Shown here one piece after another: positions 13,382 through 17,189 of a DNA stretch of 32,133 nucleotides. A model generated the notes under the pieces. The model was not told where the DNA came from, did not search any database, and saw nothing but the letters and a program-made list of their open reading frames with translations. The DNA lies in the IMG/VR virus record IMGVR_UViG_3300010261_000005, positions 1 to 32,133 of that record; one strand, given 5' to 3'. The DNA comes from a virus. Taxonomy: Duplodnaviria; Heunggongvirae; Uroviricota; Caudoviricetes. A program made the translations under genes and the position numbers. Position 1 is the first letter of the stretch. The number at the start of each line of letters is the position of its first letter.

Positions 13382-13909
13382 TTATTGCGGCATTTCCGGC
13401 CATTCAGGATTTGCAGGATCCACACGGCTGACCAGAACACTGTAGCGTTCCCATGCTTCCAGTCGGCTACGCTCCTCATCTGTTGCCATGTTCAGCCTGA
13501 CAGCGCGCTCCAGTGGCTGAATAACGCTTTCCGCTTCGGAAAGTAACGCGGCCTTTTGTGATTCTGCCTGTTGTTGCTGTTCGTCTGCCGTATAAATCCG
13601 CTTAATCACGGCACCATCCTTAAACATCCATTTACCTGAGTCATCAGCACGTCGGTTGGCGGTAATATCAGGAACCTCGACAACGCTAAAACCTTCAGGG
13701 TTGAGCGTTGAAGCATCTCTGGTGATGCCGACAATTATATTATTCTCATCGTAAACAATCTTTATCGTGTCTTCCTGAAAATTACTTACTTCCTCATACC
13801 AGTTTTTTCCCTCTTCGGACCATAACCAGATAACATCAAAATTTTTTGTCAGTTGATATTGGGCAACAGTTTTTGGATTACCCGCAGTAATATTTTTTAA
13901 ATGCTGCAT
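13382..13909 (-). CDS. G: Tail fiber assembly protein G
   Basis: 175 aa, matches P2 gpG (MQHLKNI...[11 protein letters not shown]). Confidence 0.85.
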
Positions 13910-13912
13910 AAA

Positions 13913-16648
13913 TTACACCTGTGCGACGTTATACCATGTGCCATTGATGTATTTTTGTATTGGTCTGAATACTGCGGGGTCATCACCATCGACTTCACCG
14001 ACAATACCAAGCCCGGTAATTACGTGCCCTGCTTTCTCATACATCACCCCTTTCTGCATGGTCTGGACAACACGTGTGCCAAGTCTGACATCTCTCACAT
14101 AGCGGGAATCAAAGTTACCGTAATCCGAGGGATTAACACGCCCCGTAATATTTATGGTTTTATTACTTTGAACGCTTCCGGAGACAAAGCGCATAACATG
14201 GACGCTATTAGCATAAACATCCAGATTACCATCACCATTTTGTTTAAAGCCCGTGTCATTATCACCCAAAACAATCGAATTACCGCCAAGAGCACTGGAT
14301 GTTCCTATACCCAGAGCACCATTCAATTGACCACCAGATAACGGCAGTGCACCGACATCTCCCGCTGTAGGTTTTCGCGTTGTGGTATAAAACTCAGACC
14401 AGTCAGCCTCGAATCCGTAACCGTCACGAGCAGAACGATAAAAAATACCACCGTTCTTATAATTAACGCGAAACTGGGCGGCGGGACAACTTCCTTCACC
14501 GATATTAAAATGAAGAATTAACGTTGATGCCCCACCAATAGTTGCGTTATAGGCTCCGCTACTCCAGTTCCATCCAACGGCTTTATCATTCGCAACAGTG
14601 TCTCCTGTTTTTCCTGAAGCAAATGCACCAATATTTTTCGGCGTCAGGTTAATATCTGATGTTCCATCAAACGAAACGTTATTAATTTTACGGGCTGTTT
14701 TCAGCTTTGTTGCTGTCGCCGCATTGCCGGACAGTTCACCAGAAAGGCCAGCACTGAATGTCTGTTTCGCGCCCCATGTCTGGGCTTCGTCAATGATTGG
14801 TACTCGTCTTGTTGTGATCGTGCGGCTTCCCGGATTTCCTGAAATGCGCACCATAAAAAAGCGGTAGTTGGCTTTACTTACAGTGCTGCGCCATACATGC
14901 ATTGAGCGCCCCGTACCGGAATCATCACTCGGACCAACTGCGATGTTTATCAGGTTGCCATCAATGACGCCCCAGTCCATACCGTCGGGAATGTTGGTCA
15001 TGTTATCAAGCCGAACGGTTATCAGACTGCCCGGCACAAAGTCGTGGGTCTGCCAGTCCAGGCTGGTGAGCTTTGCCACTGCACCGCCGATACCCAGATT
15101 CAGGGGAAGTGAATACGAGGTGTAGACTTCCCGCCATTCGCTCCACGAGCTGCCGGTATAGACGCGCTCAAACGTGCGACCTTTAAGGGTTGCACCTGTT
15201 CCGGCAGTTGTATAACGCTGCCATACGTTAACACCATCAAAGCGCCTCAACACTTCCAGAATACCGAGGACTGTCACGCCGTTTCCGTCCAGTACTGGAC
15301 CGTTGGTCGCTTTACCTGTAACGCTGTAAATACCTGGTGAAGTCACATCATTCAAATCCCCGTCGTAATAACGACTCTCTGACTGATGACCGACTCTTAA
15401 CCACGGTTCCCACTGCGGATTTGATGCATCCCAGCTTGCCGCAAGGCAGCGGACATACATATTTCCACGGCGAGTGGTATAACGTTGCGTTCTTCCATAA
15501 TTCCCGCCTTCGAGGATCTCAAGCGTCCCCTGAGCAAAGCCGCCTTCCTCTGGATAATTGCGTTCATATGAAGCTATAGCCGAGCTACTGTTACGCCATA
15601 AACCAAGATGTTCGGCGGCTCCAAGCGTATTCAGGTCTATAGTCGTACTCAAAGGGCGGGTAGCTGATTGAGTGTGACGCCATACGCCCCATGGACCATC
15701 AGTACCATTCCACTTATTGGCGAGTTTACGCATGTATACATTGCCGTCTCTCGTGATAAAGCGTTGCGTGCCTGCAAAATTGCCGGCAGCAAAAACCTCA
15801 AGCACACCGACAGCATTATCTTCCGGGAAATTTTTCTCCAGTGTTGCGTTAGTTGAGGTAGCTTTAGACCAGATCCCCAGATAAGCCTTAACTGGACCAA
15901 ATGTATTCAGATCAGCATCAACCGGCATTTCGCCGTTGTTTTTCATAAACGTCAGGCTGGTAACGCCAACATTGTCCAGAAAAGCTGATTTATCCTGGAT
16001 ATCTGCACCGTTCTGATTTTTCGCCAGACGTGAATTTGCGTTGTCATTCGCAGCCTTGACCGCTTTTGGCGTTGCCGCCAGTTTTTCACTGGTGCTGTTT
16101 GTTGCGCTGCTTAACTGGGTAAAACCTTTTTCTGTCAGCGTAGCGTCAGGATGGCGGCGGGACTGCTCATGTTCTGCGATTTTGTCATCGACGTAATCCT
16201 GCGTCGCCATCACTGTGCTGGCATCAATACTCAGCTCAACGGACGCCACGTTACTGACAATAATAACCATGCGGCAGGTCTGCGCACGCCCGGAGCCTTC
16301 AGCGAGTTCAGGCTTATAGCTTTCTGCCATGTTGGCGACCGCAATCAGTGTTCCGGCATCGTCATACAGACCAAGCTCACGCATCCAGAAGCCGCCCACT
16401 TCGGGCGGTACAACCAGTTCAGCCACGATATAGTTTTTATTCTTGTTATCCACGCTGACTTTATTCAGAGCGTGACGCCAGACCTCATGCACCAGTTTCG
16501 TCTGACCGGCATCCGGCACCGGCAATTTGCCATTACCGTCACCCACGGCCATTGCAGACAGGGTTACTTTTTTCCCGCCGGGGACAGTGGCGGCTGCCAG
16601 CTTTGCGGCTCCGGCAGTAGTGATAACGGTTTTAAATTTCGTGCTCAT
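13913..16648 (-). CDS. H: Tail fiber protein H (extended variant, 911 aa)
   Basis: N-terminus MSTKFKTVITTAGAAKLAAATVPGGKK... is P2 gpH-like. The protein is much longer than P2 gpH (669 aa) and carries internal repeat modules (GTQRFITRDGNVYMR / GRTQRYTTRRGNMYVR / NVWQRYTTAGTGATLKGRTFERVY). Confidence 0.9.
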   Translation of the reverse strand: MSTKFKTVITTAGAAKLAAATVPGGKKVTLSAMAVGDGNGKLPVPDAGQTKLVHEVWRHALNKVSVDNKNKNYIVAELVVPPEVGGFWMRELGLYDDAGTLIAVANMAESYKPELAEGSGRAQTCRMVIIVSNVASVELSIDASTVMATQDYVDDKIAEHEQSRRHPDATLTEKGFTQLSSATNSTSEKLAATPKAVKAANDNANSRLAKNQNGADIQDKSAFLDNVGVTSLTFMKNNGEMPVDADLNTFGPVKAYLGIWSKATSTNATLEKNFPEDNAVGVLEVFAAGNFAGTQRFITRDGNVYMRKLANKWNGTDGPWGVWRHTQSATRPLSTTIDLNTLGAAEHLGLWRNSSSAIASYERNYPEEGGFAQGTLEILEGGNYGRTQRYTTRRGNMYVRCLAASWDASNPQWEPWLRVGHQSESRYYDGDLNDVTSPGIYSVTGKATNGPVLDGNGVTVLGILEVLRRFDGVNVWQRYTTAGTGATLKGRTFERVYTGSSWSEWREVYTSYSLPLNLGIGGAVAKLTSLDWQTHDFVPGSLITVRLDNMTNIPDGMDWGVIDGNLINIAVGPSDDSGTGRSMHVWRSTVSKANYRFFMVRISGNPGSRTITTRRVPIIDEAQTWGAKQTFSAGLSGELSGNAATATKLKTARKINNVSFDGTSDINLTPKNIGAFASGKTGDTVANDKAVGWNWSSGAYNATIGGASTLILHFNIGEGSCPAAQFRVNYKNGGIFYRSARDGYGFEADWSEFYTTTRKPTAGDVGALPLSGGQLNGALGIGTSSALGGNSIVLGDNDTGFKQNGDGNLDVYANSVHVMRFVSGSVQSNKTINITGRVNPSDYGNFDSRYVRDVRLGTRVVQTMQKGVMYEKAGHVITGLGIVGEVDGDDPAVFRPIQKYINGTWYNVAQV

Positions 16649-16658
16649 TGTTTCTCAC

Positions 16659-17189
16659 TTATCCGGGATAAACAGTAATAACATCACCATCACAGACCAC
16701 ACCGCCTGTATACAGACAGCCGGGAATGTCCTGGATAATGTTCAGACCGATAAGGTGGCGACTTGCGGGTTTGGCATCGGCAATAAGCCGTTCCATTTCC
16801 AGATACATCTCCTCCGTGATGCCGCTTTCCAGCACACCGATATCAAGGCGAAAGGTTCCGGGCGGGTCGTTTGTCTCCCACCATTCCTTTACGTTAATGA
16901 GATAGCCGAGCGGCTCCACCACACGCCGGATTGCGCCTATAGTGCCCTTATGGCAGTGAATGAAATACGCATCGCGGATAACGGCGCGTTTTGTTGCTTC
17001 CGGCCACTTTTCATCCCACCTGTCGACCGAAAACGCCCACGCCAGCCACGGCAGCAGATTTGCCGGGCAGGTGTCCGGGTTCCACAGCTCACGAATACTG
17101 ACCGGCGTTTTTTCAATTTCCGCACAGGCTTTTGCGGCGGCAACTTCAAGCGGTGAAGAGCCAGTCGGCAGCAGTCGCGAATCACTCAT
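16659..17189 (-). CDS. I: Baseplate assembly protein I
   Basis: 176 aa, P2 gpI length and position. Confidence 0.9.
   Translation of the reverse strand: MSDSRLLPTGSSPLEVAAAKACAEIEKTPVSIRELWNPDTCPANLLPWLAWAFSVDRWDEKWPEATKRAVIRDAYFIHCHKGTIGAIRRVVEPLGYLINVKEWWETNDPPGTFRLDIGVLESGITEEMYLEMERLIADAKPASRHLIGLNIIQDIPGCLYTGGVVCDGDVITVYPG

Follow-up and report, generated by a model that had tools for sequence, protein, structure and literature searches.

A P2-type tail fibre of mosaic build with three predicted knob modules in a shaft cassette also present in gp37 of T2-type phages

The tail fibre gene H in the stretch of P2-like prophage DNA analysed here (the window, 32,133 nucleotides) encodes a protein of 911 amino acids (13913..16648, on the minus strand, as are all of the parts of H located below) which is a mosaic of the type known from phage L-413C. 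This architecture is widespread, and it represents no new kind of system. The explanation that best accounts for the whole of the data, to which we assign a probability of roughly 0.8, is that of a P2-type fibre made of exchangeable blocks, in which a cassette of knob modules would serve as shaft and the distal end would determine the receptor. It rests on direct demonstrations of the block homologies, of the population pattern and, by structure prediction, of the fold. H would form a trimeric fibre anchored to the baseplate by aa 1-207; the shaft cassette (aa 226-687), common to H and to the gp37 of T2-type T-even phages, would comprise three knobs, a conserved segment designated X4 and a linker; and the distal 232 aa would set the receptor, which by analogy with L-413C may be the LPS core, where a terminal GlcNAc is critical in Y. 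pestis.

The blocks of the fibre and their genomic setting

The reading frame of H is intact, and the gene occupies its place in the operon V-W-J-I-H-G, with gene I (Tail_P2_I, 16659..17189) upstream and a Caudo_TAP gene next to it downstream, in the same order as in P2 and L-413C. The downstream gene, G (13382..13909, minus strand, 175 aa), encodes the tail fibre assembly chaperone (PF02413 Caudo_TAP, E = 1e-36), and its earlier description as P2-like is borne out by an identity of 92.6% to P2 G. The first block of H (aa 1-207; 16028..16648) is a P2-type baseplate-attachment part consisting of a tail-collar fibre N-terminal domain (PF12571 at aa 1-151, E = 8.4e-58) and one Phage_fiber_2 repeat (PF03406 at aa 170-211, E = 1e-20). 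It is 99% identical to the corresponding part of L-413C H and 84.5% identical to P2 H 1-207, in agreement with the mosaic build and the P2-like N-terminus seen in the first-pass annotation. Judged by this domain and by its position in the late operon, H can be classed as a P2-type (Peduoviridae) tail fibre. Among the open reading frames around H there is neither an invertase nor a second or alternative fibre gene, and an invertible or alternative fibre system like that of Mu or P88 was rejected on these grounds.

The greater length of H compared to its P2 counterpart (911 versus 669 aa; NC_001895 12734..14743) had been noted correctly, but its attribution to an extended C-terminal region was wrong. 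The added length is a central replacement or insertion, and the block that makes it up, aa 226-687 (14588..15973; the three knobs, X4 and the linker), is homologous to the shaft of gp37: it is 56% identical over 465 aa to residues 105-552 of gp37 of Yersinia phage PST (AGR46198, 980 aa). The PST protein has no match to H outside its aa 63-552. The knob region (aa 236-535) is 55-63% identical to the gp37 of most T-even-type records among 229 phage matches, and about 190 T-even-type records have the cassette, although T4 gp37 shows no match to it. In T2-type phages the block, at 105-552 of 980 residues, is distant from the fibre tip. Sequence comparison finds no counterpart in P2 H for aa 208 to about 680, no Pfam model covers aa 212-678, and NCBIfam models give zero matches to H, to the knob region or to P2 H.

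The distal block, aa 680-911 (232 aa), is 98% identical to that of L-413C H. Its first part (aa 680-770; 14339..14611) is a domain resembling the variable S' part of the Mu tail fibre, of the gp37_C family (PF12604 at aa 679-754). In a phmmer search, H aa 671-768 matched chain residues 320-417 of the Mu S/S' chimera in PDB 8ju3 with an i-Evalue of 4.6e-49 (8.4e-72 for the whole protein), and the S' stretch, counted on the alignment, is about 80% identical. The second part (aa 771-911; 13916..14338), assigned by sequence matches, is a distal tip of P2/Mu type and is probably both the LPS-binding end and the docking site of the chaperone; its aa 835-910 match the C-terminus of Mu S in PDB 5yvq, and aa 775-911 are 53% identical to P2 H 477-669. 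Taken together, the Mu-S'-like domain and the tip reach only 40-53% identity to P2 H. Assisted in its folding by the P2-like chaperone G, the tip would most likely make the primary contact with the LPS core.

Knob modules, the X4 segment and the linker

Three tandem modules of about 92 aa each span aa 240-513 (nt 15110..15931): K1 (aa 240-330; 15659..15931), K2 (aa 331-424; 15377..15658) and K3 (aa 425-513; 15110..15376), the last being the most divergent copy. The DLN motifs with which they start are 92 and 93 aa apart. Their positions agree with the span 15100-15900 (aa 250-516) previously given for a set of three related central modules, and the relationship itself also holds, clearly by sequence for K1 and K2 and with the support of predicted structure for K3. 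The modules were compared pairwise, the self-BLAST of the whole protein having returned the diagonal only. K1 and K2 share 42.5% of their residues in an alignment of 80 aa (E = 1e-20), and their Smith-Waterman score of 180, compared to 25.9 +/- 4.9 in shuffles (z = 31.7), was equalled in none of 1000 shuffles. For K3 the sequence similarity is borderline (z = 3.0 with K1, where 14 of 1000 shuffles score as high, and z = 1.7 with K2), and profile-profile comparison with the other two modules gives P = 1.4e-4 and 3.3e-4. The recurring motif that had been quoted for the modules is present as GTQRFITRDGNVYMR in K1, as GRTQRYTTRRGNMYVR in K2 and as WQRYTT in K3; the G-x-T spacing holds for K2, whereas in K1 it differs by one residue.

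That the extra length and the repeats are an artefact of sequencing or assembly, such as a collapsed or duplicated repeat, has a probability close to nil. The modules are mutually only 26-43% identical at the protein level, the DNA repeats among them are short and weak (51 nt at 71% identity, with a spacing of 279 nt), and the reading frame is uninterrupted; the same gene, of 909-919 aa, recurs in numerous assemblies of phages and of E. coli that are independent of one another, which refutes the artefact.

The PDB sequence search gave no match for the knob region, and the fold was assigned from AlphaFold2 (AF2) models. The modules are predicted to have the same order of secondary-structure elements, with five or six strands in each forming an antiparallel beta-sheet (pLDDT 70-93; about 80-86 for K1 and likewise for K2), and a short helical turn is predicted at every module-starting D-L-N/D motif, in a monomer model whose inter-domain geometry is unreliable. 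In structure searches the three-knob model matches the fibres of the R1 and R2 pyocins as well as further knob-bearing fibres, a model of K3 alone matches the knob domains of solved fibres, and the knob models superpose on Knob1 and Knob2 of the R1/R2 pyocin fibres. On the strength of these models, K1 to K3 are identified as knob domains with the Knob1/Knob2 fold of R-type pyocin fibres.

The knobs are followed by X4 (aa 514-625, 112 aa; 14774..15109), a shaft segment defined by its conservation across related loci: it is 95-100% identical in 79 of 80 of them (71% in the remaining one, L070), including loci whose knobs have diverged by as much as 46%, and its mean column entropy is 0.18 bits, compared to 0.36-0.74 bits for the knobs. 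X4 has neither a family match in Pfam nor a structure match in the PDB sequence search, and with an AF2 pLDDT below 50 it leaves a third of the cassette structurally unexplained. The possibility that it is a fourth knob was rejected, hhalign giving no relation to the knobs (P 0.02-0.6). A further large homologue search, with K3 and X4 as query, contributed little new diversity, nearly all of its hits being close but incomplete proteins from E. coli.

Between X4 and the distal block lies a linker (aa 626-679; 14612..14773) with the motif GNAATATKLKTARKINNVSFDG, which recurs upstream of knobs elsewhere: in PST gp37, where aa 63-106 align with H aa 630-673 at 66% identity, and upstream of K1 in a further homologue (P0003). 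From this recurrence the linker is likely to be a recombination joint, and the cassette may have entered P2-type H genes via recombination at such short conserved motifs.

Exchange of knob alleles and the question of the receptor

The cassette is mobile and its knobs are exchanged. Across 80 IMG/VR loci, K1-K2-K3-X4 follows P2-type N-termini in genes that have three kinds of distal end, and it is also found on an N-terminus of lambda-Stf type (PF08400) and on other N-termini. At least 28 phage records contain the whole H-G stretch with a nucleotide identity of 90-97%, and knob DNA is present in 359 of 5,426 complete E. coli genomes. The alleles of the window are matched more nearly than by L-413C by Yersinia phage vB_YpM_50 (91.7% aa identity over the knob region, 96.8% nucleotide identity over H-G), by Escherichia phage PhiR44_2 (99.3% aa identity over the knob region) and by E. 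coli KC-Dl-1, in which the knob region is 100% identical in a prophage that lies at another site with other accessory genes. There are 12 combinations of knob alleles, with a four-gamete sign of recombination for K1/K3 and K2/K3, and dS rises from about 0.1 in the flanks to more than 0.9 or to saturation in the swapped knobs. In the prophage pool H varies most in its knobs, and variation is higher in predicted loops than in strands (0.51 versus 0.36 bits, p = 0.003). The knob modules are old, divergent alleles that have been swapped between otherwise near-identical H genes.

It is possible, although we lean against it, that this diversity has no functional meaning and is a neutral by-product of frequent recombination between prophage H and the gp37 of co-infecting T-even phages, tolerated by a structurally permissive shaft. 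Such an account agrees with the best explanation on mechanism, and differs from it only on the selection of allele diversity. It draws support from the number of T-even-type records with the cassette, from the conserved linker motifs which flank it, and from the saturated dS and low dN/dS (0.07-0.26) of the swapped modules, values which also leave positive selection on the knobs unsupported. The conservation of X4, which belongs to the same cassette, in 79 of the 80 loci indicates on the other hand that exchange is uneven along the shaft, and several discrete alleles persist at appreciable frequency.

The first-pass annotation had proposed that the repeats themselves bind the receptor and are the source of a change of host range relative to P2, which we consider distinctly unlikely as their principal role. 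The proposal has some appeal, in that the knobs are the parts in which the window H and L-413C H diverge most (44-70% identity, compared to 98-99% in the flanks), their alleles reassort, and their variation is concentrated in predicted surface loops; in addition, Knob2 is the most variable domain of the R pyocins and a proposed contributor to the killing spectrum, and knob-like domains of endosialidases bind saccharides (PMC6116203). The known receptors argue otherwise: L-413C and P2 vir1 both depend critically on the terminal GlcNAc in the outer core of Y. pestis LPS, and PST, which bears a homologous cassette, uses HepII/HepIII (PMC3182234). Because a phage with the cassette and one lacking it need the same residue, while another phage with the cassette needs a different one, the knobs are unlikely to be the main determinant of host range. 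The homologous gp37 block is remote from the adhesin end, the combination of the cassette with at least three unrelated distal ends is the pattern of a shaft and not that of a specificity module, the low dN/dS carries no sign of positive selection, and Y. pestis is recorded as host for phages with differing knob alleles and the same distal end.

The more plausible determinants of host range relative to P2 are the Mu-S'-like domain and the tip at the distal end, favoured because the knobs differ between the window H and L-413C H while the distal 232 aa stay 98% identical. In support, the host range of the P2-like phage P88 maps to a short distal fibre segment (PMC5285337). Fusions of L-413C gpH bind Y. 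pestis cells (PMC7460101). Two points weigh against this explanation: in view of their loop-enriched variation and of the contribution to specificity proposed for Knob2 of the R pyocins, the knobs may have a secondary, modulating part in host recognition; and the host ranges of L-413C and P2 do differ, in temperature dependence and in specificity for Y. pestis, in spite of the critical receptor residue that they have in common (PMC7460101, PMC3182234). In the explanation that we favour, the knobs would act mainly as trimerisation and folding units and as rigid spacers; the cassette probably lengthens the fibre, and with a geometry like that of the fibre of R2 pyocin its three knobs would extend the reach by about 100 Angstrom over that of P2 H. 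It is rather unlikely that the knobs form a second layer of specificity, exchangeable apart from the tip, whose variable loops would engage sugars of LPS or O-antigen from the side, with low affinity, and so orient the fibre or filter hosts, with discrete alleles maintained by selection in the E. coli prophage pool via recombination among P2-type, lambdoid and T2-type fibres, and with the invariant X4 as a fixed structural or recombination anchor.

The value of these results lies mainly in annotation: the 'long' H of many P2-like prophages can be read as P2 H with a T2-type knob and shaft cassette, and the repeats as predicted pyocin-type knob domains that present Pfam and NCBIfam models overlook. 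They also suggest a likely receptor determinant, the distal 232 aa held in common with the plague-diagnostic phage L-413C. For the engineering of tail fibres and pyocins, the exchange of knob alleles as units is relevant, and the PF03406 repeat and the GNAATATKLKTARKI linker are natural junctions of block exchange; engineered chimeric P2 H::S16 gp37 fibres work (PMC9594776).

Relation to known fibres

The closest known system is L-413C, whose H (NP_839867, 913 aa) aligns with the window H in a single collinear BLASTP alignment (1-911 versus 1-913, 81% identity) and lies in the same I-H-G context, followed by the same 259-aa ORF before FI. In the summary given in PMC7460101, L-413C H is a four-part mosaic whose N-terminal 207 aa and C-terminal 137 aa are like P2 and whose middle is not (Garcia et al. 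2008). The two proteins differ in the cassette, with identities of 44% in K1, 70% in K2, 46% in K3 and 70% in X4, and dS is saturated. P2 H (NP_046775, 669 aa) is alike in its N-terminal 207 aa (84.5%), its C-terminal tip (53%) and its operon position, but its middle part (aa 208 to ~390) is unrelated to the window H and holds a second Phage_fiber_2-like repeat; a scan of P2 H with the knob HMM gave nothing significant, so that P2 H lacks the knob cassette.

The Mu tail fibre S, of about 500 aa, likewise lacks the triple-knob cassette, while its residues 110-176 match H aa 167-233 in the PDB sequence search. Mu switches between S and S' via inversion of the G segment, whereas no invertase or alternative fibre gene stands beside H. 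With the T2-type gp37 the homology extends over the three knobs, X4 and the linker with its GNAATATKLKTARKI motif, but the N-terminus of gp37 joins gp36 while that of H joins the baseplate. The distal end of gp37 bears a gp37_trimer region and an intramolecular chaperone, Peptidase_S74, which is present in PST gp37 and absent from H, and the adhesin, gp38, is a separate protein. On these sequence features H has a block in common with gp37 without being a gp37.

The R1 and R2 pyocin fibres (PDB 6CL5, 6CL6, 6CU2; Buth et al. 2018, PMC6116203) resemble H in having tandem antiparallel beta-sheet domains of about 85-92 aa, in that these knobs belong to a fibre on a contractile tail of P2-like type, and in that within the family no other part of the fibre varies as much. 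They differ in number, two knobs against three in H, and in sequence, with an identity of 17-18%, and the H knobs are detected by no Pfam or NCBIfam model. The surroundings of the knobs are also different: in the pyocins they precede an iron-containing shaft and a lectin-like foot, while in H they precede X4 and the Mu-S'-like domain.

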